From NCBI GenBank assembly GCA_965215195.1, contig CBDCDC010000002.1:4352001-4416000 (forward strand): 64,000 nt of DNA. Direction: 5' to 3'. The DNA is from Candidatus Latescibacterota bacterium (lineage in GTDB: Bacteria > Latescibacterota > UBA2968 > UBA8231). Positions 5,392 to 20,753 of this stretch are shown piece by piece. The number at the start of each line of letters is the position of its first letter. Position 1 is the stretch's first letter. Below the pieces are notes generated by a model. That model did no database searches. It had not been told where the DNA came from and saw nothing but the letters and a program-made list of their open reading frames with translations. The position numbers and the translations under genes are program-made.

Positions 5392-7281
5392 TTACAGCAG
5401 CTTGCACCCGGCTAGTTCCTTGGTACTCAGGCGGATGCCGCCGGCGCGGAGCCCGCGCACGGGATATTGGCCGATGGGGAAGACCTCGTTGAGCTTGCGC
5501 AGGCGCGGCTTGGGCTTGTAGGCGAGGGCGATCTTTTTGTTAGAATCCGTGGTCAGCTTGAGCACTTTGCACTCGGCCGGCACGAGATCGTAGCTACGGC
5601 CTAAGATGAACTTGTCGATTGTGCAGCGCTTGATGTAGGAGGCACCGGCCTTGTCCTTATAGACGATGCTGAAAACTAGGTCCTTGTCGATCAAGCCGCA
5701 GTGGAGCAAGCCCTTGCCGACGAAGAGCTTGTCCGGCGCGTGGACGACCGAGTAGGTGCCGCCCTTGCGGATGGCGAGCACAGGGTCGTAGAGCGATACG
5801 TCGAAGAGGACAGTGCCGTTGATTTGGTGGCCGAGATAGCCGGTCTTTTTGTCGTAGCGGAGCTTGAGGTTGCGGTTGGCAGCCGAGCGCACATCAACTC
5901 TTTTGAGCTCCACGATTTTGGTGCGGCGCGGGAACTGGCTGCGGTAGCGACTGATGAGGTCTTGCAGGAAGGAGATGGTGTAGGGAATGATGCTGTCTAA
6001 ATGGCCCTTGATCTCGCGCAGCCGGCCGCGGATCTGGGTCATTTCCCTTTGGGCGCGGTTGGTGTCGTAGAGCGAGATGCGGCGGATTGGTATGGCGAGC
6101 AAGGCGTCGATGTCGTCGGCAGTAACGGCGCGTTTGATTTGCGCGGCAAAGGGCGCAAGCCCCGCACGCACGGCCGCGGCGATCTGCTTGGGGGAGGCTT
6201 CGCTCTCAATGGCCTCGTACACGCGGTTGGCAATGAAAATTTGCTCCAAGGTGCGGGCGTGGAGCCGGTCGTTGAGCTGGTCGGCTTCGAGGTGCAGCTC
6301 GGCCTTGAGAATATCGACGAGGCGATCGACGTTGTACTGCAAGACTTCGGTCGCGCTCATGACTTGGGGCTTGTCCTGCTGGTTGATCAGCATCAGGTGA
6401 GTCGAAATCGACATCTCGCAGTCCGTGAAGGCGTAGAGCGCATCCACGACCTCCTCGGTGTACGTGCCGCGCGGCAGTTTGATCTCGATCTCAACCTCTT
6501 CGGCTGTGTAGTCGCTGATGGTGCCGATCTTGATTTTGTTTTTGCGCACCGCGTCTTCTATGGAAGCGATAAGCTGTTCGGTGGTGGTGCCGAAGGGAAT
6601 CTCGCGGATGAGGATGCGCTTGGGGTCGGAAGCGTCGAGCTTGGCGCGGACTAAGACCTTGCCGTTGCCGTCGTTGTACGTCGAAAGGTCGGCGAGCCCG
6701 CCGGTGGGAAAATCCGGGCGAATGGCAAAGGGCCGGTCCTGCAGGTAAGCGACTTGGGCCTCTAGAAGCTCGATGAGGTTGTGCGGCAGGATCTTGGTGG
6801 CCATGCCGACGGCAATGCCCTCAGCTCCTTGGGCGAGGAGCACCGGGAGCTTGGCGGGAAAAACCACGGGCTCCTCGTTGCGGCTGTCGTACGAGGGAAC
6901 GCGTGGGGTAAGCGCTTTGTTGAAGAGGGTTTCCTTGGCCAAGGGCGTGAGGCGGCACTCAATATAGCGTGCGGCAGCGGCTTCGTCGCCCGTGTAGATG
7001 TTGCCAAAATTGCCCTGTTTCTCAATGAAAAGGTCCTTGTTGGCGAGGACGACTAAGGCCCCGTAGATCGACTGGTCGCCGTGCGGGTGGTACTGCATGG
7101 TTTGGCCGACCACATTGGCGACCTTGTGGAACTTGCCGTCGTCGATCTGCTGGAGAGCGTAGAGGATGCGCCGCTGGACGGGCTTGAACCCGTCGTCGAG
7201 GTGCGGGATGGCGCGATCCTTGATGTAGTAAGCGGCGTATCTGAGGAAGTAGCTCTCGTATAAGCGGTCTATATAGGCCAT
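5392..7281 (-). CDS. parC: DNA topoisomerase IV subunit A
   Basis: [29 protein letters not shown] and AAARYIE (active-site Tyr). Short CTD with no GyrA box. Confidence 0.9.
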
Positions 7282-9104
7282 TAGACTAGGTGCTCCATGA
7301 TGTAGTCGCGGCGTTGCGGGGTGTTTCTACCCATGTAAAAGGAGAGGGTCTGCGGCACGGTGTCTAGCGAGCGCACAGCGACCTTGACCAAGCGCATGTC
7401 GCCGTTGATAAACTGCCCGAATTCCTTGGGGGAGATTTCGCCCAAACCCTTGAAGCGAGTGACCTCGACGCTGCCCTTGAGCCGGTTCTCGGCGCGCTCG
7501 CGCTCGCGCTGGTCGTAGCAATAGAGGGTCTGGCGCTTGTTGCGCACCCGGAAGAGCGGGGTCTCCAAGATGTAGAGGTGGCCGCTGGTCACGAGCTCCT
7601 CGAAGTACGTGAGGAAGAAGGTCATCAGCAAGGTGCGGATGTGGAAGCCATCTTCGTCGGCATCCGTGGCCAAGATGACGCTGTCGTAGCGCAGATTTTC
7701 CACGTCCTCTTCAATGCCCAGCGCCATCATCATGTTGTACAGCTCTTCGTTTTTGTAGATGGCGGCGCGGGTTTTGCCACAGAGGTTTTGCGGCTTGCCC
7801 TTGAGGGTGAAGATGGCTTGGGTCTCCGGGTCGCGCGAGGAGACGATGGAGCCAGCGGCCGACTGACCCTCGGCGATAAAGATCATGGAATCCTCTCCGC
7901 GCTTCTTGTCGCCTTTGTGGTACTTGCAGTCCTTGAGCTGGGGAATTTTGATCTCAATGCGGCGCGCGGCCTCCTTGGCTTCCTTTTTAACTGCGTTCAG
8001 CTCCTTGCGCAGCTTCTCATTGTGGATGATGCGCGCTTCGAGCTTTTGCGCGGTCTCCCGATTTTTGTGCAGGAAATCGACGATGGCTTCGCGGGTCTCG
8101 TTGACGATCCAGCCGCGGACGTCGGTATTGCCCAGCTTGTTTTTGGTTTGCGACTCGAAAATCGGCTCCTTGACCTTGACGGCGACGACGCCAAAGGCCC
8201 CATCGCGGACATCGACGCCGTTGAAGGTTTTCTTGTAAAATTCGTTGACGCCCTTGAGTACGCCTTCGCGGAACGCGCTCTGGTGGGTGCCGCCGTCGGC
8301 CGTGTACTGGCCGTTGACAAAGGAACGGTAGGACTCGCCGTAGCTATGGACGTGGGTGAGGGCAAATTCGAGGTATTGGCCCTTGTAGTAAGCGGGCGGA
8401 TAGAAAACCGAGTCGCCGGCTTCGCTTTTGAGGAGGTTGAGCAGGCCCTGTTTGGACTCGAATTTTTGGCGGTTGAAGTACAGGCGCAGGCCCTGGTTGA
8501 GGCAGGCGTAGTTCCACATCCGGCGCTCGACGAACTCGTGGTTGAAGGCGAATTCGCCAAAGATGGCCGGATCGGGCAAAAACTCGACGTACGTGCCGTC
8601 GGGCGCGTTGGGCGCTCGGCTCTTCTTTTGCTTTTTCAGCTCGCCGCGCTCAAAGAGCACTTCGGCGCACCGGCCGTCGCGGTAGGAGCGGACAGCGAAG
8701 TGGGCCGAAAGCGCGTTGACGGCCTTGGTGCCGACGCCGTTAAGCCCCACGCTGAACTGGAACACATCGTCGTTGTATTTGGCACCGGTGTTGATGACCG
8801 AGACGCACTCTACTACCTTGCCGAGGGGAATGCCGCGGCCGTAGTCGCGGACCTTGACCCGCCCCTTGTCGATCTCGACGTCGATCTGCTTGCCACAGCC
8901 CATGATGAACTCATCGACGGCGTTATCGACGACCTCTTTGAGCAAGATGTAGATGCCGTCGTCGGAATCGTCCCCCGAGCCGAGGCGGCCGATGTACATG
9001 CCGGTCCGCAGACGGATGTGTTCAAGCGAAGAGAGGGTCTTGATCTTGCTTTCGTCGTACGTGGCCTTGCCGTTGGCGCGGCTGTTGATCAGAGTCTTGG
9101 CCAT
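7281..9104 (-). CDS. parE: DNA topoisomerase IV subunit B
   Basis: EVVDNAVDE, DYGRGIP and GLNGVG (GHKL ATPase); AEGQSA and ATDADEDG (TOPRIM); RFKGLGE. 1-bp overlap with parC. Confidence 0.9.
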   Translation of the reverse strand: MAKTLINSRANGKATYDESKIKTLSSLEHIRLRTGMYIGRLGSGDDSDDGIYILLKEVVDNAVDEFIMGCGKQIDVEIDKGRVKVRDYGRGIPLGKVVECVSVINTGAKYNDDVFQFSVGLNGVGTKAVNALSAHFAVRSYRDGRCAEVLFERGELKKQKKSRAPNAPDGTYVEFLPDPAIFGEFAFNHEFVERRMWNYACLNQGLRLYFNRQKFESKQGLLNLLKSEAGDSVFYPPAYYKGQYLEFALTHVHSYGESYRSFVNGQYTADGGTHQSAFREGVLKGVNEFYKKTFNGVDVRDGAFGVVAVKVKEPIFESQTKNKLGNTDVRGWIVNETREAIVDFLHKNRETAQKLEARIIHNEKLRKELNAVKKEAKEAARRIEIKIPQLKDCKYHKGDKKRGEDSMIFIAEGQSAAGSIVSSRDPETQAIFTLKGKPQNLCGKTRAAIYKNEELYNMMMALGIEEDVENLRYDSVILATDADEDGFHIRTLLMTFFLTYFEELVTSGHLYILETPLFRVRNKRQTLYCYDQRERERAENRLKGSVEVTRFKGLGEISPKEFGQFINGDMRLVKVAVRSLDTVPQTLSFYMGRNTPQRRDYIMEHLV

Positions 9105-9671
9105 TGTTTCTAATAATATAGTAGAATGAGCCGCGCCTCAGTGGGGGAGGGACGCGACTGGCGGACAATGGGAGCGATTAAAATGAAGGAGAAAACAGAA
9201 GCATAGGAGGAGAGCAGAAGGGGTAGCCACTCTCCTTGGTGCAACTGCTAGTTCAAGAAATTCTCCGTTTGCTTAATATAGTGAACATAAATGCAGTTGT
9301 CAATCAAATGCAGGTGTGGGCAGAAGCGGTGATTTAGCGACTTTGCTGTATCTTTTGGGAACGGTAGTGTTACAGAGGTGATACACTTTGGCGTATCGAC
9401 TGGTTGGAGCGGAAGCTGTGGCGACAAAAAATCTGGATTGGCTAACCTACCTAATTTCAAGGAGTTAGCGAATACCAACGACGGCTCAGTCTATCTGGTG
9501 TGCTTCTTGGCACGTTTTTCGCTTTTGTTCCCGCTGAGGCCGAGACCTCAGTCGTGCTTCAAACCATCTTCAACTAGAGGTATATTTCAATTGCTCGCAT
9601 CTATAAGAGAAAGATTGGCATCAAGGTTATTGTGGTGGAGCAGTGGCCTCAGAAGATCCTCGGAAACCAAT

Positions 9672-12059
9672 ATGTTGGACCGTAGCACATTATCTATTCT
9701 AGTCCTATTCCATGGATGTAGCTCCGTTCATACTAGACGAGCTTGTGAGATCGCCCGACAATTACGACACCGAGGCTACGAGGTTCGGCTAGCAGGAGAT
9801 GGGCCTTATGCGGAGCAATTTTCCCAAAAGGGAGAAGAAATATGCAGTGTTGAAACATTGCCTCTAGATATTCACCGAGACCAGACTGAGCTATTGGACT
9901 ATAGGTCGTGCGATACTGAATGGATCGATTCTTGCGTAAAATCCGAACGGTCTTTGATTGAGGAGTACAAGCCCGATCTAATTATACACTCCTTGAAACC
10001 AACGGCTTCAGTTGCAGCATATTTGGAAGGTGTTGACGAAGTTGAAATAATCCAAGGATACGATCAACCAGGCGGTCATCTTCCTCTTCAGACCCTATCT
10101 GTACTACCATCGCGAGATACGTTTGCAGAATACTTAAAAAGCAAAGTCTGCGAAATCAAAAAAAGAAATAAGTACTTCCTAATCGCCGATATACCCGATC
10201 TATATCCTACACTAGAGTTTAGTGCTAGTGGATTCCATTATATAGGACCTCTTTTGCCAGCCATGAGAAAAAAAAGAGACGGACGGAAGGTGATTCGCAA
10301 ACGGGGTACACCATTTCCTACCGTCTATATAAAGGATCCCAAAAATCTCCTAAGAGAAGATATACTTAGACAAGTTGAGTCCGGGACAAAGATGCCTTAT
10401 CGCTTACTAGTAGAATCTACCAGAGGAGTAAAATGGTCTAAAAGCCGTGTAGAGTTTGTCGACGAAAGATATAGAGAGCCACCATGGGAAAGAATACGTA
10501 TAATAGTTGGAGATTTAGATATAGAGACTCTATACAGTGCTTTATCTCATGGAGTTTTGCCTGTCGGTATAGCTACTACTTTAGACCAAGAGCTCCATCT
10601 CGATAGACTCGAAGCAGTTAATCTGGGTTTCAAGATAGATCCAGATATGTTTAGCTATCATATTGTTACACAAGCAGTAGGAAAAATACTAGATACTTGG
10701 GATAAAATGGAGGTTCGATTAGAACACGTTGTTAAGATCTTGGAAAGATGGTATACAAAAGATGTCGTCGCTGACTGGGTAGATAATTATTTTGTGAACC
10801 GGCATACGGTACTCCGTTACGATCCCAGATTTCTAGTAAGCGAAAACGAATTCTTACAGCAACTCGACGGCACTACTCCCTCCACGCTATCAATTGAGTC
10901 ACTACGTAAAATGCTACAGCAAGGTATTCAAAGAGGAATACCTCACTGGCGACAGGGCAATCAGTACTTCTTCGACATAATAGATTCTTGGAACTGGCTT
11001 TACGAAAAGGAAGATCGATTTTTCGAGGCTGAATACAGAGCCTGTGATCAAAGGCGGAGTACCTTCTTCGATATAGATGAAATGGGCAACATACGTTCAA
11101 AATCTCATATTCAACGCTATAAAGTAACCTACTCTTACGACATACACCTCACTGAAAAATCGGATCAACAGTTAAGAGCTTTTATACCATATCCTTTAGA
11201 GACAGAAGAACAAAAGGCAGTTAATCTAATTAGCTGTTTCCCAGAGGATATGAGAGACTATTTACGCGGCAAGTTTGGATTCTTCTACGCGTACCCTTTC
11301 ACTGCAAATTCGGCAAATTTTTCATATACTTGCGAACTTGAAGTCAGTAAGTACAATGCTAAAGGTAGGGGTGAGTACATCCTCCCAGAGTGGGAGAGAT
11401 CGAGATATTTGTACACCGGCGAAGGCTTGGCAAAACTTCCAGAGTTAGATCAAATGCTCTCTGAGATACTCGAAGCATCTGCGTCCTGTGATAAAAAAGA
11501 ACTAGCTTGGGCCTTCTACAGCAAACTAGTCAGAACCAAAAAATTCAGAAAGACTAAACCACCTGCGATGGGTCTAGTTGATAGTTCAGCTACCTTACTA
11601 AATAGTAGCGGTGGTAATTGTATTCACTTTGCCAGAACCTTTATATCTCTGTGTCGAATGGTAGGTATTCCTGCTCGGGAGAGATGTGGAACCTTGTTAG
11701 GATACCCAATTTCTGAAAAGGTGTACGAATACAGCAGTATAAACGAGCCTATAATAGGCCACACATGGGCCGAAATCTACCTAGAAGAAGCAGGCTGGAT
11801 ACCCGTCGAATTCCTCAGTGTGGCTATCGGCGAAGTTTCTATAAACGAATACAATATCAAGGATCCTAAATTAAAAAAATATATAAAGCAAAATAATCGC
11901 TCTTTTGAATCTTATTATTTTGGCCATTTAGATAACCAACGACTCATGTTTTCCAATTCTGTGAAGACACTACCTCTATGCTTAACAAAAGGTGTGGATG
12001 AATGGGAACCTCTTCCAAACATACAATGCCAATATCGTATGAGAGTGGAGTGCATATAA
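9672..12059 (+). CDS. Fusion protein: GT-B (GT1/GT28-like) glycosyltransferase + wHTH-like linker + transglutaminase-like domain
   Basis: HTRRACEIARQLRHRGYEVRLAG, YKPDLII, HYIGPL and ALSHGV...DQELH are GT1/MGT-like. C-terminal GGNCIHFA...LCRMVGIPAR...HTWAEIYLEEAGWIPVE is the TGase core. ATG at 9672 is preferred over the track start at 9378. Confidence 0.75.
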   Translation: MLDRSTLSILVLFHGCSSVHTRRACEIARQLRHRGYEVRLAGDGPYAEQFSQKGEEICSVETLPLDIHRDQTELLDYRSCDTEWIDSCVKSERSLIEEYKPDLIIHSLKPTASVAAYLEGVDEVEIIQGYDQPGGHLPLQTLSVLPSRDTFAEYLKSKVCEIKKRNKYFLIADIPDLYPTLEFSASGFHYIGPLLPAMRKKRDGRKVIRKRGTPFPTVYIKDPKNLLREDILRQVESGTKMPYRLLVESTRGVKWSKSRVEFVDERYREPPWERIRIIVGDLDIETLYSALSHGVLPVGIATTLDQELHLDRLEAVNLGFKIDPDMFSYHIVTQAVGKILDTWDKMEVRLEHVVKILERWYTKDVVADWVDNYFVNRHTVLRYDPRFLVSENEFLQQLDGTTPSTLSIESLRKMLQQGIQRGIPHWRQGNQYFFDIIDSWNWLYEKEDRFFEAEYRACDQRRSTFFDIDEMGNIRSKSHIQRYKVTYSYDIHLTEKSDQQLRAFIPYPLETEEQKAVNLISCFPEDMRDYLRGKFGFFYAYPFTANSANFSYTCELEVSKYNAKGRGEYILPEWERSRYLYTGEGLAKLPELDQMLSEILEASASCDKKELAWAFYSKLVRTKKFRKTKPPAMGLVDSSATLLNSSGGNCIHFARTFISLCRMVGIPARERCGTLLGYPISEKVYEYSSINEPIIGHTWAEIYLEEAGWIPVEFLSVAIGEVSINEYNIKDPKLKKYIKQNNRSFESYYFGHLDNQRLMFSNSVKTLPLCLTKGVDEWEPLPNIQCQYRMRVECI

Positions 12060-14572
12060 TGGACATAAGTGTAATTGTAGCCACATATAATCAGAAAGAA
12101 CGTCTCCGTCTCGTGTTGAGAGGTTTAGAAAGTCAGAGTATTCCAAACGATCACTTTGAAATACTAGTGGTTGACGACGGTTCAACAGACGGTACTGGAG
12201 CAATGCTGAAATCACTGAAGATGCAGAATCTCGAAGTTGAATCTTTTGAAACGAACCAAGGCCGCTGCCGAGCACGGAACAAAGGAATTGAACGGGCACA
12301 TGGTTCGTTAGTCGTTTTTTTAGATGGAGATGCATTACCGGCTCCGAATCTACTCCAGTGCTACTTAGAAGCCTATAAAGAGAATGGTCAGAAATCAGTA
12401 TTTTGTGGGTACCAGTATGTCCTTCCCAATCTAGAGTATTTCCAAGATCCTCAGACAGGTTCTCTCTTGGATATCTCGCTGCCTTATTCACTGCGTCGGC
12501 ACTTGGCTCTACATCGAGATAAGATGATTGTCACAGAGGATATGGTATGCAATGAGTTCGATAGTATTATTGAAAAAGCAGTAGAAGGAGGCTATCCGTT
12601 TGAAGCAGTTCGTACTATGCAGCGAGAATCTCTCGATCTTTACGAAACTGTCGCAGAACCGGCACTAGGCTGGATTGGATTATACCCTCACAATGTGGCC
12701 ATACCGTTAAAGCTACTAGAAAAAGTAGGGAAATTCGATGATACCATACCTTTTTGTGAAGGATGGGAACTTGGCTATCGCCTAAAGGCGGCAGGTGGAC
12801 AATTTATCAGTGTCCAAGCCTCTTCTTACCACCTATACCATCATCATAATTTCTCCGATCCTGAGAAAGCAAAAGCCGAAAGAGTGAAGCGATATGCTGC
12901 GGTTGAGTACATAGCCTGCAAACATAGCGACCCCTTGGTGCGTCTGATCCACTTCTGGTGGGCACATCTGTGGCCTAATCCTTTTCTTCCAGAGGAGTCA
13001 GTTATAGACAGTCTGATTGAATTTGACCATATCTACCGAACTATTTCTGAAACAGATAGAAAAGAATACCAAGAGATCCTAGATGCACTTCCACAGCTTG
13101 ACCTAGATACCGAGCTTCCTGCTCATTGCAAATTTAGCTCTGCTGAAAGTAATGTATCCGAACTAGTTGACCAGCAAGATGGTCCTGAAGAATGGGAAAT
13201 CATTTTAGCCTCTGCTGACGAGCACTGGCAAAACGGTCGTCTAGAATCCGCCTTATCCCAAATCGAACTAGCAAAAGAAGTTAACCGTCTTCGGGGTGGT
13301 ACAACTATAGGATTAGCTAACATACTGATCTCCCAAGGCAAAGTTTACGAGCTGAAAGGCGAATTAGACAAGGCAAATCAATGTTATGATGAGGCCATAT
13401 CAATTTTTTCACAAACTGAGGATGATGAGAGTACAAGGAAGCTAGCTGTAGGATATACCTGCAAAGGGTTTATCACACAGCTACAAGGAAATCTCACTGA
13501 GGCTGCTGATTTTTATATAAAAGCACAGAGCCTTAACAAAAAAATAAATTGTCGAGAAGATTATGCCTTAGTTACTAGCAACTTGGGTACTGTGCATTTA
13601 CTAAAAGGCGACTTGAATTCAGCAGAGAAACTTTACGAGGAATCTATAGCTATTTACAAAGAAATTGGAGACTCCGAAGGAATTGCTAGCCAGTACAATT
13701 CACTTGCAAATTTAAGAAAAATTCAAGGCCGTATTTACGAAGCACGTACTCTACTGGAACAGGCTATTGGTATAGATAAAAAGATGGATAGAAAAGAGGG
13801 ATTGGCATTGCATTATGGATTATTTTCCTCGATACACCTTCTAATGGGAAATATGGAAGAAGCACTAGAGTGCGGCAAAGCTGCTTTAGAAGCTAATCAA
13901 AGCTTGGCGGATGAAAAGGGAAAAGCGTACTCATATAGAATACTAGCGAATGTGCATTTCTATCGTGGGGATTTTCCTCTGGCAGAATCTTATCTGCATC
14001 ATTCTATAAGCCTATTTGAACGTATAGGTATGTCATCCGATGTGATTGAGTGTTATTTATCTCTTGGAAAATTGTACGCTCATAGTAAAAAATTTGATAA
14101 AGCCAAGGAATTCCTATGCAATTACCTACGCCTTGCTCCAGACTCGCCTAACCAGCAAACTATTGCTGCAGCCCGAGCTACTTTAAGTCTCGTATATATC
14201 CAATGCGGACAATATGAAGACGCGTACCAAGAGCAGAAGACTGCACTGGGGATATACGAAGCCGAGGACGATGAAAAGGGCACCGCCTACGGATTTGCTA
14301 GTCTAGGCGAGATACATCAGCTTAGAGGACAATGGATTGAAGCAGAATCTTGTTATAGTAGAGCTCTGTCTATATGCAAGAAGATAGGTGACGAACTCGG
14401 ACAAGGGCTTGCCTATATGGGGATGGGAGATGTGGCTGCCCAAAAAGAGTCAAAAGCAAGAGCTGTCGCTTTGTGGACGATGGCATCAAAAATTTTCGCC
14501 GGAATGAATATGTATAACTACGCTGACCGAGTCGAAGAAAAGATAAAGACTGTTCAAGGATCAGAACTATAG
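12059..14572 (+). CDS. GT2 (GT-A) glycosyltransferase with a long C-terminal TPR array
   Basis: ISVIVATYN, VVDDGSTDGT, ARNKGI, VVFLDGD (DxD), GKFDD and EGWELGYRL, followed by many helical TPR-like repeats. ATG overlaps the upstream stop (TAATG). Confidence 0.88.
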   Translation: MDISVIVATYNQKERLRLVLRGLESQSIPNDHFEILVVDDGSTDGTGAMLKSLKMQNLEVESFETNQGRCRARNKGIERAHGSLVVFLDGDALPAPNLLQCYLEAYKENGQKSVFCGYQYVLPNLEYFQDPQTGSLLDISLPYSLRRHLALHRDKMIVTEDMVCNEFDSIIEKAVEGGYPFEAVRTMQRESLDLYETVAEPALGWIGLYPHNVAIPLKLLEKVGKFDDTIPFCEGWELGYRLKAAGGQFISVQASSYHLYHHHNFSDPEKAKAERVKRYAAVEYIACKHSDPLVRLIHFWWAHLWPNPFLPEESVIDSLIEFDHIYRTISETDRKEYQEILDALPQLDLDTELPAHCKFSSAESNVSELVDQQDGPEEWEIILASADEHWQNGRLESALSQIELAKEVNRLRGGTTIGLANILISQGKVYELKGELDKANQCYDEAISIFSQTEDDESTRKLAVGYTCKGFITQLQGNLTEAADFYIKAQSLNKKINCREDYALVTSNLGTVHLLKGDLNSAEKLYEESIAIYKEIGDSEGIASQYNSLANLRKIQGRIYEARTLLEQAIGIDKKMDRKEGLALHYGLFSSIHLLMGNMEEALECGKAALEANQSLADEKGKAYSYRILANVHFYRGDFPLAESYLHHSISLFERIGMSSDVIECYLSLGKLYAHSKKFDKAKEFLCNYLRLAPDSPNQQTIAAARATLSLVYIQCGQYEDAYQEQKTALGIYEAEDDEKGTAYGFASLGEIHQLRGQWIEAESCYSRALSICKKIGDELGQGLAYMGMGDVAAQKESKARAVALWTMASKIFAGMNMYNYADRVEEKIKTVQGSEL

Positions 14573-14627
14573 TGTAATATCATAAGGCGATACCTTCGCA
14601 AAAGGCGAGTAATAATTCCTATCAAGT

Positions 14628-15173
14628 ATGACACTTTGTAAAAGTAAATTAACAATTGGAGCGGCTATAATATTAGTCATTTTTTTTGCTGCTACCTTGC
14701 AATTAATCGCCGTGTTCGTTACGAATGAAAGCATATACCGTAACGCGATGGCGTGGTTGAAAGGTGCGGAATACGAAGGAACGGAAGGAGTCGTTCTACA
14801 GACACGTAAGATGAATTGTGGTCCTGCATCTCTTAAAATGGTCTTGGATAGCCTAGGTATAGACCAAGAACTTACAGATATTGAAGACATGATTAGATTG
14901 GACGAGACAGGTTCTTCTTTATTCGACTTGATGAAATACGCCGAAAGTCAAGGAGTACATGCTGAAGCTTGGAGGCTAAATATAGATGACCTAGAGAGCA
15001 AACCACTTCCTGTGGTAGTCTTTATTGAGGATGATCACTTTGCTGTGCTGGACCAGATCAACGAACACGGTGAGGTCATCTTGCGAGATCCAGCCATCGG
15101 CAGGCTCAGAATTAGGAAATGGGCATTCAACCGTATATGGAAAGGAGAGACTTTGATATTGACAAAAAAATAA
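14628..15173 (+). CDS. Stand-alone C39 (double-glycine leader) peptidase with an N-terminal membrane anchor
   Basis: QTRKMNCGPASLKMVL (Gln/Cys), DHFAVL (His) and LRDPAIG (Asp). Hydrophobic residues ~8-31. No ABC transporter domains. Confidence 0.85.
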   Translation: MTLCKSKLTIGAAIILVIFFAATLQLIAVFVTNESIYRNAMAWLKGAEYEGTEGVVLQTRKMNCGPASLKMVLDSLGIDQELTDIEDMIRLDETGSSLFDLMKYAESQGVHAEAWRLNIDDLESKPLPVVVFIEDDHFAVLDQINEHGEVILRDPAIGRLRIRKWAFNRIWKGETLILTKK

Positions 15174-15175
15174 AA

Positions 15176-15204
15176 CATTCACCATGTGGAGGTAGGGGTT
15201 GTCA
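15176..15204. repeat. Left arm of an imperfect inverted repeat flanking the precursor gene
   Basis: cattcaccatgtggaggt... is the reverse complement (17/18) of ...acctctacatggtgaatg at 15562-15579. Confidence 0.8.
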
Positions 15205-15231
15205 TCTTCTCTTTTAAGAAAGGAGAACATC

Positions 15232-15504
15232 ATGACCAAACTTATCAACACGAAAGGTGTAACAGCTCTGGCGACAGCCTTGGGCTTATGCGCCTACAGT
15301 ATCGCACCTAGCAACAGTGCCATCATCTCCAAGCCTATTACGCCTTCTGAGGCTCGGGACATCAAGGGTGGCATTCTCCCTTGGGCACTGGTAGGTTGGG
15401 CCATAGCAGCTGACGTCGCACTCACAGTTGGTGCGATGTCCCTTTACGGGAATCTAGAGACTTCAAGGCAACAACGAGAAGGATCTTACGCCCGCAACCC
15501 GTAA
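15232..15504 (+). CDS. Putative RiPP/bacteriocin precursor (90 aa): signal-like N-terminus, double-glycine site, 43-aa core
   Basis: Strong RBS AAGGAG. ...ITPSEARDIKGG|ILPWALVGWAIAAD... matches the LSxxELxxIxGG consensus. Directly downstream of the C39 peptidase gene. Confidence 0.78.
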   Translation: MTKLINTKGVTALATALGLCAYSIAPSNSAIISKPITPSEARDIKGGILPWALVGWAIAADVALTVGAMSLYGNLETSRQQREGSYARNP

Positions 15505-15550
15505 GAAGACTGAAAAACAACAAACAAAACCTGTAAGAAGCTAACCTAGG

Positions 15551-15579
15551 TGAAACCCGCAACCTCTACATGGTGAATG
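15551..15579. repeat. Right arm of the inverted repeat flanking the precursor gene
   Basis: tgaaacccgcaacctctacatggtgaatg pairs with 15176-15204. Confidence 0.8.
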
Positions 15580-15582
15580 GAC

Positions 15583-15616
15583 GAGCTACCAGTCTTTTCA
15601 TCGAGACTGGTAGCTC
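15583..15616 (+). terminator. 13-bp perfect hairpin downstream of the precursor (terminator or 3' stabiliser)
   Basis: gagctaccagtct-tttcatcg-agactggtagctc. No U-tract follows, so it is not a canonical intrinsic terminator. Confidence 0.5.
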
Positions 15617-15857
15617 AAAATCTTCGCTAACTAAGAGAAGGACTCTACGACTTTGAATGCCTTAGTGTTTCTTTTAGGGATGATTCAGCCTATCGCCTAT
15701 AAGGCGAGGGTCGCTTTAGTTGGGCTGAATGGTCTTTTGCATGTTGAGCAATTTTCGGTGTCATGCTATGGACTATGAGGTTTTACCACACTATCTTAAG
15801 GTATTGGTTCGGACTTGAGGGGTGTACTTCAAGCATTTAGAAGAGGCAGGTGTACTC

Positions 15858-16661
15858 ATGAAAAAAATCCGTACAATGGACCAACACATTTATCCCTTAT
15901 TTACCAGAAAGTTTGAAAATATACGATGTAGGACATTTTCTACCTTTCTACTAGCTATTTTTATGTTCTTCTTTTTTCGCTATACTGTCGATACTATACT
16001 TAATCTATTCGCTTTGAGCGACTACCTTCTCATATTATTATGTACTATTCCTTATGTTTTACTTATTTTAATTGTCGTGGCATTCTCTAAGATAGAGAAA
16101 CAGGATCTGACCATCCAAACCTTGGGATTATCCCCTCAAATTCCCAGAAGATCAAAAAGATTCGTTTTGACGTTTATTTTTTTATCGTTAGTATCCGGAG
16201 TAGGTATATTGGTCTTTTTCCTTTACATGAAGCTCCAAGGGATTGATATCCACTTAATACACCCCAACCCTACTCTAATACCTTGGACTGAGGAAGCCGA
16301 CTGGGATGAAAAATTTCGTACTATATTTCTCCTTATTATTCCATATTCAGTTCGTGCTTTATTGATTGCCCCTGTTATAGAGGAGGCATATTTTACAGGC
16401 CTGATTTTCCCTGCTCTAAGGAATCGATTGGGGTTCGTTCTCGGCTTCACTATTACCGCTTTTCTCTTCAGCTATCACCATTACTCTCCGTTTTTAGAAG
16501 GACATCTAAGGGAATTTATCATTATGTTTATGTCACAAAGTCTTTCATTTTTTTTCTATCAGGGTACGCGCTCTCTTTATCCTTCTATAATATACCATTC
16601 TTTACGCAATATGTCAGTTTTGGCTATTGAACTCTCAGCCTTTATCCCAACTCAGTCCTAA
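15858..16661 (+). CDS. CPBP/Abi (CAAX-type) intramembrane metalloprotease
   Basis: APVIEEAYFTG, FSYHH and IIYHSLRN motifs with multiple TM helices. Start could be 15822, 15858 or 15876. Confidence 0.82.
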   Translation: MKKIRTMDQHIYPLFTRKFENIRCRTFSTFLLAIFMFFFFRYTVDTILNLFALSDYLLILLCTIPYVLLILIVVAFSKIEKQDLTIQTLGLSPQIPRRSKRFVLTFIFLSLVSGVGILVFFLYMKLQGIDIHLIHPNPTLIPWTEEADWDEKFRTIFLLIIPYSVRALLIAPVIEEAYFTGLIFPALRNRLGFVLGFTITAFLFSYHHYSPFLEGHLREFIIMFMSQSLSFFFYQGTRSLYPSIIYHSLRNMSVLAIELSAFIPTQS

Positions 16662-16786
16662 TTAGCACAGGAAAAACCTTCGGTGCCGTTTTAAGCTTAT
16701 GGTTAGTCTAGTATATATCAAATACGTTCTTAGTGAATACGATGTTATGAAAATAAATCCATCTCTTTTAATAAGGAGGATAACTC

Positions 16787-17488
16787 GTGGAAGCCGCACT
16801 CCAGACTGAAATCGGCCTCGTCGGCCGCATGATCCGGATCTTCTACGCACCCAGCAAGACCTTTGAATCCTTCGCTCATAAGCACAGCACTGCCGACTGG
16901 CTTATGCCCGCCATTCTGAGCACCGTAGTTGCCACAATTGCTGCCGTGCTCGTCATGCCCGTCACGACTGAGTTCAATCAGGAGGCCATACAACAGCGTA
17001 TTCAGGGTATGTCTGCTCAACAGCGAGAGGCAGTAGAGCAATCCCAAATCGAGGGTATGATACAGGCCATTACGCTGATCTCCACACCTATTGTGCTTTT
17101 CATTTTTCTTTTTCTTTTTGCCGCGTCTTGCCTACTGATGGGCAAATTACTCGGCGGCCTACTCTCCTACGGCCAAGTCCTAACCATCGTAGCCTATGCG
17201 GGGTTGATCGCTATTCCCCAACATATTGTCAAGACATTGCTAATATTGGCCAAAAAGACACCGATGGTGCAAATGGGCTTGGGGGTGTTCCTCTCCGAAG
17301 AGGCCCTACAAAGCTTCAGTGGTCGCTTATTGTCTCTCATTGATCCCTTTGTCGTTTGGAGCGTTGTGATTACTGGTCTCGGTCTGTCCATTGTCGGACA
17401 GTTCGATCGCAGCAAAGCCTACACTGGGATTGGTGTCATAATGATTGTTTGGTTTTCCTTCGCTGCTGCCCTAGGTAGTATCGGCTAG
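16787..17488 (+). CDS. Yip1 family membrane protein
   Basis: RIFYAPSKTFE...WLMP N-terminus, about 5 TM helices and IDPFVVW motif. RBS AAGGAGG before GTG. Confidence 0.78.
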   Translation: MEAALQTEIGLVGRMIRIFYAPSKTFESFAHKHSTADWLMPAILSTVVATIAAVLVMPVTTEFNQEAIQQRIQGMSAQQREAVEQSQIEGMIQAITLISTPIVLFIFLFLFAASCLLMGKLLGGLLSYGQVLTIVAYAGLIAIPQHIVKTLLILAKKTPMVQMGLGVFLSEEALQSFSGRLLSLIDPFVVWSVVITGLGLSIVGQFDRSKAYTGIGVIMIVWFSFAAALGSIG

Positions 17489-17489
17489 T

Positions 17490-17705
17490 CTTTCGGAGCA
17501 TGCCCTTGAACTGTTCGCCAAAGAGGAAATCCGCGATCCCTTCCAACCCTCTTGGGGCTACGACGAAGCCTGCGCTCGATTGGGTCTCATGCGTCAGGAG
17601 GCCGGCGACATCGAGGGAGCGCGGGAAGCCTTTGTCAAAGCCCTCGAAGTGAATCCCAACAACGGCTGGGTAAAAAACCACTTATTACCGGAATTGGAGC
17701 GCTAG
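17490..17705 (+). pseudogene. Start-less 3' remnant of a TPR protein paralogous to 19968..20753
   Basis: Frame from 17499 reads HALELFAKEEIRDPFQPSWGYDEACARLGLMRQEAGDIEGAREAFVKALEVNPNNGWVKNHLLPELER*. This aligns with RAAELFAQEEPTDPIHPAWG...AFAKALEIDPDFGWVKYVLLPELEK. In-frame stop upstream at 17472. Confidence 0.75.
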
Positions 17706-17711
17706 TACGCA

Positions 17712-19946
17712 ATGAATAAAAGATGCACCGCTCGACAGGCCGAGATCGTCCTGTTCTGCGTTTCCTTACTCGCTGGGCAGACCTTTGCCCAGAGCAAGGC
17801 TTTCGTACAGGGGCAGGTCGTCGACGAAACCGGACAGCCGGTCGCCTTTGCCAACGTACAAATCATCGACACTACCGACGGCTCAGTAACAGGCCGCGAC
17901 GGCCGTTTTGTCTTTTCTACCCGGCACCTTGGATCACGCGACCTGCACGCCACCTTCATCGGCTTTGAACCTGCCCGGCAGACCCTACACTTGATCGCGG
18001 GCGACACCACACTGGTGCGCTTGGTGCTGCGGCACTCCCTCATTGAACTCGGTGAAACCGTCGTCACAGTTAGCACCTACACCACCGGGGAGGATGAGAC
18101 CGTCACCCTCTCGCCTTTAGATGTATTGACGACGCCTGGGGCTTCGGCCGATATTTTTCTCGCGGTCAAAACCTTTCCCGGCGTTGCTACCGTACATGAC
18201 GGTGCCGGTCTTTTTGTCCGCGGGGGCGACGTGAGCGAGACCGTCGTTTTGCTCGATCAAGCTACGGTGGTGCATCCCTACAGATACGAATCGCCCACCG
18301 GCGGAGTATTCGGCACGATTCCCTCCTTTATGGTGCAGGGCACGGTTTTTTCCACAGGTGGATTCTCCGCCCGCTATGGCAATGCGCTTTCCGCGGTGCT
18401 GTCCATGGAGAGCCTAAACATGCCCGTGCAACGGAGCTATAGGCTCGGTTTGGGCCTCGCTGCCGGCTCTGTGGGCCTCGACCTGCCTCTTATTGACGAT
18501 AAGCTTGGCCTGCGCTTTACGGGCAATCGCAGCTTTACCGATCTCATGCTTCGCGTCAACGGTCACCGCAGCGAATTCACTACCACTCCACGCGGCCACG
18601 ACGGCAATCTCAACCTAGTGTACAAATACTCACCGACCGGACGCCTCAAACTCTTCAGCTTCAACGCGGGCGACCGAATCGGTGTGCGCGTGGTCGAGCC
18701 TTCGTTTGACGGCCAGTACCGAGACCGTACCGATAACTACTTGCACAATGTTCAGTGGACGGATGTATGGGCCGATTGGTTCATCCAGACCAGTGCCTCG
18801 CTCAACCGGCACACGGCCCGGCGGCAGTTGGGCAGCCTAGACCTGACCCCCCGCGACTGGACCGGCAAAATTCGCACGGACTGGGAACGCGCGCTCGGAG
18901 CTTTCGGGATCATGCGCCTCGGTACCGAACTGGAGCACGCTGACAACAGCTTCGTGGGCAGCATTCCTCAGGACGATGTTCTCGACCCCGAGGCAGAGAC
19001 ATTTGAACTCGACACTTCCTACAGTGCCCGGCGCACTGGTGCCTACTTTGAGGTTGATTTCAAGCCCGGGCGTCGCATCGTCGCCAATGTCGGTATGCGC
19101 GCCGACCACCACAGCTTGAGCGACGATTTTGTCCTAGACCCGCGCCTGTCTGCGCGATACCAGTTTTCCGCGAACACAAACGCTCGGCTCGCTTGGGGCA
19201 TCTATCACCAATTCCCCGCCCCATTTGAATACAACCCCACCAGCGGCAACCCCAATCTAGGGCCCCAACGCGCCCAACACTGGGTAGGCGGCTTGCACCA
19301 CGAACGCGGACAATTCCTAGTACGGCTGGAGGCTTACTACAAACCCTACCGCAATCTCGTCCTGGATCACCCCGACCTAAACCTTGCAAACGCGGGTAAA
19401 GGCCGGGCTTCTGGTGTTGACCTCTTTTGCAAGTACGGCGCTTTTCTCAATACGCGCTTGAGCGGGTGGATAGCCTACAGTCTGCTGCGATCGCGCCGAT
19501 TGCAGGTGCGCCACCTAGGGTTTGAGATGCTCCGCGAAGAAGCTCCTTCTCCGTTTGATATTACGCACAACCTGACCTTGGTCACAAAGGGGCAGATCGT
19601 CTACGCCCTCAGCGGCGGCCTGACTCTGAGATACGCCACCGGACGCCCCATCACCCCAATCGTCGATGCCGTTTCCGTAGCAGATAAAAGCTACTACCTG
19701 CCCGTAGAAGGACCTGTCGGCTCAGAACGGCTGCCGTCCTTTCAACAGATAGATGGGCAATTGAGCTACGTGCATTTCTTTGGCAGCGGTCACCAAGCGG
19801 TCTTCTACTTGGCGGTCAACAACCTGCTCAACCGCGCCAATGTGCTCGACTATGATTACAGCATCGACTATGCTCAGCGCCAGCCACGCACCGCCATCTT
19901 TCGCCGCTCCATTTACTTTGGCACCACCGTCTCTCTGAACTATTGA
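17712..19946 (+). CDS. TonB-dependent receptor
   Basis: Signal peptide, carboxypeptidase-regulatory-like domain (GQVVDETGQPVAFANV), plug (FPGV...VRGG...GGFSARYGNALS), and a barrel ending NNLLN...SLNY. Confidence 0.9.
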   Translation: MNKRCTARQAEIVLFCVSLLAGQTFAQSKAFVQGQVVDETGQPVAFANVQIIDTTDGSVTGRDGRFVFSTRHLGSRDLHATFIGFEPARQTLHLIAGDTTLVRLVLRHSLIELGETVVTVSTYTTGEDETVTLSPLDVLTTPGASADIFLAVKTFPGVATVHDGAGLFVRGGDVSETVVLLDQATVVHPYRYESPTGGVFGTIPSFMVQGTVFSTGGFSARYGNALSAVLSMESLNMPVQRSYRLGLGLAAGSVGLDLPLIDDKLGLRFTGNRSFTDLMLRVNGHRSEFTTTPRGHDGNLNLVYKYSPTGRLKLFSFNAGDRIGVRVVEPSFDGQYRDRTDNYLHNVQWTDVWADWFIQTSASLNRHTARRQLGSLDLTPRDWTGKIRTDWERALGAFGIMRLGTELEHADNSFVGSIPQDDVLDPEAETFELDTSYSARRTGAYFEVDFKPGRRIVANVGMRADHHSLSDDFVLDPRLSARYQFSANTNARLAWGIYHQFPAPFEYNPTSGNPNLGPQRAQHWVGGLHHERGQFLVRLEAYYKPYRNLVLDHPDLNLANAGKGRASGVDLFCKYGAFLNTRLSGWIAYSLLRSRRLQVRHLGFEMLREEAPSPFDITHNLTLVTKGQIVYALSGGLTLRYATGRPITPIVDAVSVADKSYYLPVEGPVGSERLPSFQQIDGQLSYVHFFGSGHQAVFYLAVNNLLNRANVLDYDYSIDYAQRQPRTAIFRRSIYFGTTVSLNY

Positions 19947-19967
19947 CCTTAACCAAAGAGGCCACTT

Positions 19968-20753
19968 ATGCGACGCGTTCTGCTCTCACTAATTTTCATT
20001 TTCTCGCCCGCTTACTCCGCCTTCGCCCAATCGGTTGACAGTCTTCTCGTCAGTGGAAAACAGATGCTGGAAGCCGGTGAAAACGAGCGTTCCCTCGATG
20101 CGATGTATGCGGCGCGGGCGATGTTCGAGCGCACCTTAGCCGATACCAGCTTGGCCGCGTGGGGACACTACTACATCGCCTTGGCCGATTACCGCATCGT
20201 CGACCTCCTATTAGCCGCAGGCAAAAAAAACAAAGACGCGGCTTCTGAGCATCTCAAAGCCGCTGTCGAGCATTTGCAAGAGGCCACCCGGCTCGATCCT
20301 CAAGCCGCCGAAGCTTATGCTCTGCTGTCGAGCGTGTACGGACGACAGATCGGCCTCAACCCGGTCAAGAGCATGGTCTTGGGCTCCAGAGTAGGGAAGG
20401 CCATCAAAAAAGCTATGCAGCTCGCCCCCGACAATCCGCGTGTGGTGCTGAGCGCGGCCATCAGTGATTTCAATACCCCCAAAATGTTCGGTGGAAGCAA
20501 AGAAGAGGGCCTGCAAGGATTCCAGCGTGCGGCCGAACTATTCGCCCAAGAAGAGCCGACCGATCCCATCCACCCCGCATGGGGACACAGCCGCACGTAC
20601 GCTTGGCTCGGCATCGCTTACCAGGACCGCGGCGAACTGGAGCAGGCGCGAGCGGCCTTTGCAAAGGCGCTTGAAATCGATCCAGATTTTGGTTGGGTCA
20701 AGTACGTGCTGCTGCCCGAATTGGAGAAAGCCAATTCACCGGATGCGCCGTGA
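19968..20753 (+). CDS. Exported TPR protein
   Basis: Signal peptide (AFA-Q) and TPR-like repeats (AEAYALL, AYQDRGELEQARAAFAKALEIDP). Confidence 0.82.
   Translation: MRRVLLSLIFIFSPAYSAFAQSVDSLLVSGKQMLEAGENERSLDAMYAARAMFERTLADTSLAAWGHYYIALADYRIVDLLLAAGKKNKDAASEHLKAAVEHLQEATRLDPQAAEAYALLSSVYGRQIGLNPVKSMVLGSRVGKAIKKAMQLAPDNPRVVLSAAISDFNTPKMFGGSKEEGLQGFQRAAELFAQEEPTDPIHPAWGHSRTYAWLGIAYQDRGELEQARAAFAKALEIDPDFGWVKYVLLPELEKANSPDAP

Follow-up and report, generated by a model that had tools for sequence, protein, structure and literature searches.

A conserved gene cassette in Latescibacterota combines a double-glycine membrane peptide, its putative C39 protease and a glycosyltransferase pair

Six genes lying in one direction within a 64,000-nucleotide stretch of a Candidatus Latescibacterota genome (contig CBDCDC010000002.1) form a conserved, undescribed unit, in which a stand-alone C39 cysteine peptidase is, judging from sequence comparison, well supported as the protease of the small double-glycine peptide encoded directly after it. 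Below, "the window" denotes this whole stretch, position numbers without a locus or contig name refer to it, and its own genome is called G000. We read the unit, with a confidence that falls slightly short of even, as a peptide-maturation operon in which the C39 peptidase would cut a Sec-inserted peptide after Gly47 and cytoplasmic transferases would tailor it. The main rival to such tailoring is that the transferases act on something else and simply share expression with the peptide system; release of a short signalling peptide and two-step proteolysis are lesser alternatives.

A conserved six-gene cassette

The original prediction for this DNA had described six co-oriented genes, encoding in order a glycosyltransferase (GT) joined to a transglutaminase (TGase) domain, a GT2 enzyme with tetratricopeptide repeats (TPR), a C39 peptidase, a precursor peptide, a CPBP protease and a Yip1 protein. 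All six, with their order and named domains, were recovered from the list of open reading frames (ORFs) and by Pfam, at 9591-17488 on the + strand, together with two non-coding features:

9105-9590, + strand: non-coding leader 5' of gene 1, presumed promoter region of the operon (no long + strand ORF; G+C content drops)
9591-12059, + strand: gene 1, GT1-like GT-B glycosyltransferase with a two-domain transglutaminase-like unit (Pfam, PDB profile matches, structure model)
12059-14572, + strand: gene 2, GT2 (GT-A) glycosyltransferase with a long TPR array, soluble (Pfam, invariant Asp motifs, structure model)
14628-15173, + strand: gene 3, stand-alone C39 cysteine peptidase, one membrane helix at the N-terminus (Pfam PF03412, 97 bits)
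15232-15504, + strand: gene 4, precursor peptide of 90 residues (alignments, hydropathy, charge counts, AAGGAG)
15583-15616, + strand: 14-bp stem-loop in the 3' untranslated region (UTR) of the precursor gene (folding energy, conservation)
15858-16661, + strand: gene 5, CPBP/Rce1-like intramembrane protease, in an ORF opening at GTG 15822 (Pfam)
16787-17488, + strand: gene 6, Yip1/YknW-like multi-pass membrane protein (Pfam)

This arrangement is not chance. In an index of 5.8 billion proteins the GT1/TGase protein has 14 relatives at E <= 0.001 among the 8000 candidates sharing most words with it, and further loci came from scans of species-representative genomes and metagenome contigs. All six genes recur in the same order in the loci L020, L021 and L022, at 79-88% protein identity; L023 and L035 (52-58%) hold five genes in order, both contigs stopping inside the CPBP gene, and the short contigs L036 and L037 are consistent with the cassette order over their length. 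The run from GT1/TGase to CPBP is thereby found in 5 loci besides the window. The flanks of L020, L021 and L022 are those of the window at 88-91% DNA identity, so these loci represent the same insertion in close kin, and homology runs on without a break through the leader at 9105-9590 in L021 and L022; the flanks of L023 and L035 differ, which makes their positions independent. A question raised with the original prediction was whether homologues of the transferase genes ever co-occur with C39 and a Gly-Gly peptide. They do: leaving the window aside, each of the five GT1/TGase orthologues with at least 52% identity and a readable context has GT2-TPR, C39, peptide and CPBP downstream (5/5), so the prediction was not refuted on this point. 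Its further claim that the enzyme combination matches no described class also stands, in that neither the peptide nor gene 1 has a curated family in Pfam or NCBIfam, and the gene combination is not described in the literature searched, which consisted mostly of abstracts and did not extend to supplementary cluster tables.

The base composition sets the cassette apart from its surroundings. From gene 1 to gene 6 the G+C content is 0.41, 0.42, 0.42, 0.53, 0.36 and 0.51, against 0.58-0.60 in the flanking topoisomerase and TonB-receptor genes and 0.601 in the whole genome. The low-GC island of the original prediction is thus real, but it is not confined to the first five genes, since all six are poorer in G+C than the flanks, with the smallest deviation in the peptide gene and Yip1. 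Gene 1 most likely starts not at ATG 9672, as first thought, but upstream at TTG 9591 (822 residues), because protein-level conservation of the 27 intervening residues extends to homologues with as little as 37% identity. For gene 2 the most likely start is ATG 12059, which overlaps the stop of gene 1 as TAATG, and the same starting residues are found in 5/5 of its orthologues; the proposed translational coupling of the two genes therefore holds, and is tighter than the 58-nt overlap given by the open frame from 12002. The gaps after gene 2 and gene 3 are 55 nt and 58 nt.

Scans for promoters and terminators gave match counts not above those in shuffled sequence, and the operon promoter was not located; a comparison of 9000-18000 with Rfam gave no match at E 1 or better. 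No mobility mechanism came to light in a search that covered tRNAs, of which positions 1-30000 hold none, but no integrase or flanking direct repeats. Fifteen sequencing runs from 10 studies contain the stretch or part of it, with no RNA run listed among them. Downstream of the cassette, at 17712-20753, L021 lacks the TonB-dependent receptor and the TPR-like gene after it, both of which L022 has; this is the site's second difference in gene presence. Contig L020 is labelled Poribacteria though it shares the window's flank at 91% identity, and L023 is labelled Planctomycetota though its genome is placed in the window's family by genome search; for these reasons we take both labels as noise, probably errors of binning or naming and not cross-phylum transfer.

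The peptide, its probable protease and its membrane partners

The precursor gene is single-copy in the genome, carries AAGGAG 7 nt 5' of its ATG, and encodes a peptide that neither Pfam nor NCBIfam assigns to a family. Twenty-five relatives came from a profile search, and HMMER over 1.84 billion cluster representatives returned only 6 members, so the family is tiny. Within the phylum the peptide is present in 8/168 genomes, confined to one family (8/76) and two genera, and a metagenome scan with the peptide profile gave 3 loci.

In an alignment of 27 sequences the peptide has a uniform layout. Residues 1-29 look like a Sec signal, with a net N-terminal charge of +2 or +3 in 27/27, then 12-19 uncharged residues and, read by eye, a Ser-Asn-Ser c-region. 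The double-glycine recognition stretch spans residues 33-47 and closes with the Gly-Gly pair at 46-47, where the original prediction had placed it. The 43-residue "core" appears to be mostly one strongly hydrophobic predicted transmembrane helix (48-73), hydropathy reaching a window value of at least 1.6 only at residues 48-71; Pro50 and Asp61 within the helix are nearly invariant. The Gln-rich tail is polar and on average uncharged, with Gln in 23/27 sequences and an Asn-Pro end in 17/27. Both the Sec-type signal and the transmembrane nature of the core were missing from the original account, and a membrane-helix core behind such a signal weakens the reading as a glycosylated ribosomally synthesised and post-translationally modified peptide (RiPP) and changes the likely biology.

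Conservation is densest ahead of the cleavage site. Ser33, Pro35, Thr37, Glu40, Ala41, Ile44, Gly46 and Gly47 are invariant (-15, -13, -11, -8, -7, -4, -2 and -1 relative to the cut), and Ile36 (-12) and Lys45 (-3) nearly so. According to PMC10885120 and PMC12457901, double-glycine proteases need Gly-Gly, Gly-Ala or Gly-Ser at -2/-1 and hydrophobic residues at -4, -7 and -12; the latter three positions are here occupied by Ile44, Ala41 and Ile36, in front of a Gly46-Gly47 pair found in 27/27 sequences.

The candidate protease is encoded next door. Gene 3 carries a Peptidase_C39 domain (E 7.7e-28) behind a single N-terminal hydrophobic helix seen in the hydropathy profile, and Gln58, Cys64, His137 and Asp154, which we take to be catalytic because their spacing fits ComA-type peptidases, are invariant in 5/5 orthologues, so the domain carries the full set. 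It lies immediately 5' of the peptide in 11/11 loci examined. This 181-residue protein is the only PF03412 match in the 6.1-Mb genome, and since it stands alone the genome has no peptidase-containing ATP-binding cassette (ABC) exporter; among plasmid records its closest matches, at 28-35% identity, are peptidase domains from bacteriocin ABC exporters. From these sequences we consider it likely that the C39 enzyme cleaves at the Gly-Gly site, and about an even call whether the site is cleaved outside the cytoplasm.

CPBP (gene 5; Rce1-like/CPBP, E 7e-12) follows the precursor directly wherever the contig continues, and its orthologues occur in exactly those 8/76 genomes of the family, and 8/168 of the phylum, that have the peptide. 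An orphan immunity gene spread across the family was considered and ruled out, the orthologues occurring only where the peptide does. Both the family membership and the adjacency to a peptide gene that mark Abi/CPBP immunity proteins appear in the sequence here, and one passage of PMC8692603, citing Kjos et al. 2010, describes CPBP proteins beside bacteriocin genes as commonly proposed immunity factors. The protein also resembles the sorting-type proteases MrtS and MrtJ weakly, far under their NCBIfam cut-offs. Gene 6 (Yip1, E 8.8e-16) scores 65.6 bits with the NCBIfam model YknW_fam, under its cut-off of 110; it accompanies the cassette in the window's genus (the window, L020, L021 and L022) and is missing 3' of the peptide loci that lack glycosyltransferases.

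Two decayed cassette ends were also seen, one in G000 (C2:4142554-4144130; L019 about 12555-14131) with CPBP and a Yip1 fragment, the other in genome G008 (C1:3001045-3002107; L050) with CPBP and a leaderless remnant of the peptide core. These second CPBP copies, at 67% and 76% identity in G000 and G008, have one in-frame TGA each, and we read them as decayed cassettes, not as orphan immunity genes. A relative of an insertion-sequence transposase, described below, adjoins the decayed copy in G000 at C2:4141354-4142097.

One family member, P0040 (121 residues), has the recognition stretch ending in Gly-Gly in two tandem copies with a hydrophobic segment after each, and is by its sequence a putative two-cassette precursor. 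The stem-loop 3' of the precursor gene has a minimum free energy of -34.1 kcal/mol (z -6.6 against 200 shuffles) and is conserved in 4/4 close loci; among the three nearest to the window, L020 shows one compensatory change of a pair. No U-tract follows it and Rfam gives no match. Across the window, L020, L021 and L022 the 3' UTR (15505-15640) shows 89% mean column identity, equal to that of coding DNA, and visual comparison suggests that a portion of it recurs 3' of the stop in L023 and L036, which are distant loci. The region may hold an RNA element that extends past the stem-loop.

The glycosyltransferase pair and competing readings

Gene 1, numbered here from ATG 9672, divides into a GT-B part (about 1-395) and a transglutaminase-like unit (about 396-795). 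Pfam places Transglut_core at residues 610-713 (E 1.8e-14) and gives only a sub-threshold GT4-like match in the N-terminal half, where a profile of homologues compared with the PDB finds the GT1 enzymes YjiC and OleD (best E 3.9e-9); that comparison also finds TgpA. The transglutaminase triad Cys650, His697 and Glu/Asp713 is kept, and in a Foldseek search the AlphaFold model of residues 396-795 (predicted local distance difference test score, pLDDT, 88.6) matches best the putative Cys protease 3isr (E 1.5e-11) and then TgpA. Gene 2 combines Glycos_transf_2 (E 3.7e-26) with TPR_12 (E 8.5e-46); its DD and DxD motifs are invariant (D39, D40, D89, D91), and the model of residues 1-365 (pLDDT 88.8) finds as best Foldseek matches the generic GT-A enzymes K4CP (chondroitin polymerase), AvpGT, WrtF, TarS and GalNAc-T2. 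Hydropathy shows no transmembrane segment in either product, from which we take both to be cytoplasmic. A complex prediction of GT2-TPR with the peptide scored 0.00 against a mark of 0.32 and counts neither for nor against binding.

The pair is not peculiar to the cassette. Matches to the pair occur in 19/41 related genomes (G000 counted), often several per genome, and paralogues at 30-40% identity are common; the GT1/TGase and GT2 pair, with TPR fused or neighbouring, is a general module of the phylum. Neighbours of the paralogues include FG-GAP proteins with a FlgD_ig-type C-terminal domain (cargo of the type IX secretion system type), DUF4159, MacB/HlyD/ABC and ABC-2 transporters. The TPR array is fused to GT2 in the cassette only; in the four paralogues examined a stop codon separates them. 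This in-frame stop proved to mark ordinary adjacent genes. G000 itself holds further copies of the trio (loci L012-L017):

C1:797343-802209; C2:2173047-2177657; C2:2271518-2276203; C2:2376144-2379603: four full glycosyltransferase trio paralogues
C2:94867-96978: degraded copy of the trio

The converse also occurs. Three genomes of the genus g16 have C39, peptide and CPBP without any transferase gene; in two of these three loci a second CPBP lies upstream, so that CPBP flanks C39 and the peptide on both sides, and regulators of the XRE-type helix-turn-helix (HTH) family lie divergently upstream. One and the same DUF386 gene adjoins L023, which in this genus bears the GT pair, and L047 and L048, which lack it; the pair was therefore gained or lost in place. 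The peptides differ along with it: Ser33, Thr37 and Gly-Gly are found in 7/7 peptides with a verified upstream GT gene, and the three GT-less peptides have Ser/Ser/Ala, Ser/Thr/Ala, and Gly-Ala or Gly-Ser at these positions, Gly-Ala or Gly-Ser being their cleavage motif.

How could these parts work together? The sequences establish which genes are present, how they are ordered and conserved, that the catalytic residues are intact and that the cleavage motif is canonical. In the scheme we favour, the operon would have been acquired horizontally and would make and process one small membrane-targeted peptide. The ancestral unit may have been C39, peptide and CPBP, in front of which one lineage would have put a resident GT module, and the low-GC version would then have passed into the window's genus. 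The Sec pathway would insert the peptide so that the Gly-Gly site faces outward from the inner membrane, where the C39 enzyme, tethered through an N-terminal helix of its own, would cut behind Gly47 to leave a 43-residue single-helix peptide; the peptide's own export signal and the anchored protease together suggest a cut on that outer side, and because the peptide brings this signal no ABC transporter would be needed. CPBP would be an obligate partner, either for self-protection in an Abi-type role or for a second, intramembrane cut, and Yip1/YknW may be an accessory of the same kind. The GT1-like/TGase and GT2-TPR enzymes would have been recruited to modify whatever part of the peptide is accessible from the cytoplasm, with Ser33 and Thr37 before export as candidate sites, or the Gln/Asn-rich tail after insertion, the transglutaminase-type enzyme then acting on Gln. 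That the glycosyltransferases modify this peptide we propose tentatively, and that the product is an antagonistic, bacteriocin-like peptide is possible but more doubtful. The glycosylated and perhaps cross-linked product of the original prediction found no support beyond the adjacency of the genes.

Several observations weigh against this scheme. The core has no conserved Ser, Thr or Cys in the 27 sequences, and core peptides are neutral to acidic, unlike most bacteriocins. The orientation of the C39 domain, with the sequences read by eye, is ambiguous by the charge rule. No RiPP recognition element turned up in the Foldseek search with the transglutaminase half, and the donor-binding motif of the GT1-like domain looks degenerate by eye beside the usual GT1 pattern. 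The fold of GT2 is nearest to polysaccharide and teichoic-acid transferases; SunS, of which solved structures exist, is neither among the 50 PDB sequence matches listed nor among the best 50 of 345 Foldseek matches (E <= 0.001). Within the flanks covered, C39, peptide, CPBP or Yip1 occur near GT-pair paralogues at 0/11 related loci and 0/5 loci of G000, the latter being the four full copies and the degraded one. The GT-less loci establish that the pair is not required for the peptide system, and the contrast between GT-bearing and GT-less peptides is weak because it comes essentially from two clades. Much of this is what one would expect if two modules with different substrates share one operon, the GT pair building or modifying another glycoconjugate (a glycan of the envelope, a glycolipid, a secreted protein) and being co-expressed because its product shields the producer's own envelope from the peptide, or merely because both were transferred together: peptide loci exist without the pair, its paralogues stand by exporters and secreted cargo and never by the peptide or C39, GT2 is closest in fold to enzymes of polysaccharide and teichoic-acid synthesis, and the core offers no conserved acceptor residue. 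We nevertheless regard this explanation as rather unlikely, since the joined modules remain unbroken at identities between 52% and 96%, their genes in one direction and the gaps short, the GT2-TPR fusion exists in the cassette only while a stop codon separates the two in four paralogues, and the features of the peptide shift along with the presence of the pair.

Two further alternatives start from the peptide. A signal, a short segment, a cleavage motif, a hydrophobic helix and a tail is the layout of a sortase substrate, and the product could be the roughly 18-24 conserved residues between the signal-peptidase site and Gly47, released as a pheromone when an outward-facing C39 cuts, with helix and tail as a mere anchor until then and with Ser33/Thr37 glycosylated in the GT-bearing form. 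The stretch before Gly47 is indeed the best conserved part while helix and tail vary, the GT-less loci have their divergent XRE-type regulators, and P0040 repeats the recognition stretch in tandem. The conserved positions, however, include those that a double-glycine protease reads (-12, -8, -7, -4, -2, -1), so recognition alone explains the conservation; pheromones usually diverge between lineages; the nearly invariant Pro50 and Asp61 would be needless in a mere anchor; and Pfam finds no regulator in the window's cassette. This makes release of a pheromone improbable. Two-step proteolysis would instead follow the cut by C39 at the membrane surface with one by CPBP within the helix, the fragments regulating something, possibly the transferases. 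The strict co-occurrence of C39 and CPBP with the peptide, the helix-destabilising character of the conserved Pro50 and Asp61 and the weak likeness of CPBP to MrtS/MrtJ fit such a route, but the freed cytoplasmic tail would have just 5-21 poorly conserved residues, no DNA-binding or sigma-factor partner is found in the cassette by Pfam, and CPBP proteins adjacent to bacteriocins are, in the part of PMC8692603 that concerns them, usually read as immunity proteins. We consider it very improbable.

Near the trio paralogues lie small ORFs that open with a signal-like segment and are rich in Cys in their C-terminal part (L012:6006-6212; L014:10261-10623; L017:2994-3320). They were considered as glycocin-like substrates and dropped, longer relatives carrying a C-terminal sorting-type domain; they look like secreted cargo or its fragments. 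An insertion-sequence-type DDE transposase (DDE_Tnp_1 with DUF772) lies inside one paralogue locus, at L014:11034-11936. A repeated DNA element occurs at several unrelated genome loci and reads as a spurious Arg/Ser-rich ORF of 56-99 residues; an apparent family of 99-residue ORFs near the paralogues and the second CPBP/Yip1 copy was rejected on this ground, being repeated DNA and not genes. Its copies are:

L014:14480-14779 and L014:16310-16609: repeated DNA element
L019 about 5835-6005 and about 15687-15977: repeated DNA element

Known systems and significance

Among the closest described systems are the glycocins (sublancin with SunA/SunS/SunT/BdbAB, glycocin F, enterocin F4-9), whose clusters likewise hold a double-glycine-type leader, a GT2-family transferase and C39 activity. 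A true glycocin cluster of the sublancin/glycocin F family would account for the co-location of a double-glycine peptide, C39 and a GT2 that carries helical repeats. Glycocin cores have Cys residues in nested disulfides and bear an S- or O-linked sugar. The C39 enzyme here is, however, stand-alone and membrane-anchored and no part of an ABC exporter, the peptide has a Sec-type signal and a transmembrane-helix core, an extra transferase is present and fused to a transglutaminase-like domain, and GT2 has no specific likeness to SunS among the matches listed. The differences from glycocins pointed out in the original prediction are real: no core has a Cys (0/27), no thioredoxin-like gene and hence no thiol-disulfide oxidoreductase lies in the cassette, and no peptidase-ABC transporter lies in the genome. 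Three defining parts of a glycocin cluster in the list of PMC12457901, a Cys-rich core, disulfide enzymes and a SunT-type exporter, are missing here, and the chance that this is a glycocin cluster is next to negligible.

Another related group comprises class II bacteriocins and further double-glycine peptides that mature through peptidase-containing ABC transporters (PCATs), with the same -12, -8, -7, -4, -2, -1 pattern and the same Gln/Cys/His/Asp set; the nearest relatives of the C39 enzyme are PCAT peptidase domains, and a CPBP/Abi-type gene adjoins the peptide gene here. In contrast to PCAT systems, the PF03412 scan finds no peptidase-containing transporter in this genome, the leader has 47 residues and is signal-peptide-like at its start, and the core is hydrophobic throughout, with a neutral to acidic charge. 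C39 enzymes unfused to a transporter are also represented by FapD (Pseudomonas amyloid) and FilB (pilus), which gene 3 matches weakly in NCBIfam (E 3.6e-11 and 8e-9), but the scores are far under the cut-offs (42.8 against 330 bits; 35.3 against 475 bits), no amyloid or pilus genes lie nearby, and the best match is a PCAT peptidase domain. Abi/CPBP immunity proteins and YknW of the Bacillus subtilis YknWXYZ system share their Pfam families with the two genes beside the peptide gene, the YknW match being sub-cut-off; YknW is linked to resistance against a peptide toxin. The B proteins of lasso peptides (leader peptidases of family C96), as described in PMC10885120, likewise bring a transglutaminase-fold Cys-His-Asp domain into a peptide cluster, but here that domain is fused to GT-B, its structural neighbours are 3isr and TgpA, and no recognition element accompanies it. 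A lasso-peptide cluster was rejected, Pfam finding no cyclase of the Asn-synthetase-like kind in the cassette.

The peptide system is a variation on the double-glycine peptide theme and not a new kind of system. We regard as unlikely a new class of ribosomal peptide system, in which a substrate with its own Sec signal would be cut sortase-fashion on the outer face by a membrane-anchored C39 enzyme, at a double-glycine site immediately ahead of a transmembrane helix, and in which the cytoplasmic GT1-transglutaminase fusion and GT2-TPR would place a sugar on Ser33/Thr37 or an amine or sugar on the Gln-rich cytoplasmic tail. The product, a glycosylated or transamidated peptide embedded in the membrane, would then arise with no ABC exporter, and the trio multiplied in this phylum would gain its first assigned role. 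Practical value is limited, with a tiny family in one bacterial family, of which we know of no cultured member, so that heterologous expression would be required. If our reading is true, double-glycine processing would be uncoupled from ABC export, with a Sec-type signal placed ahead of a classic C39 recognition stretch. The GT-bearing and GT-less versions at one chromosomal site in sister species offer a natural comparison of what tailoring enzymes do. And for the GT1-transglutaminase/GT2/TPR trio, present in about five copies per Latescibacterota genome, the cassette would, on the same condition, provide a first handle on a substrate.

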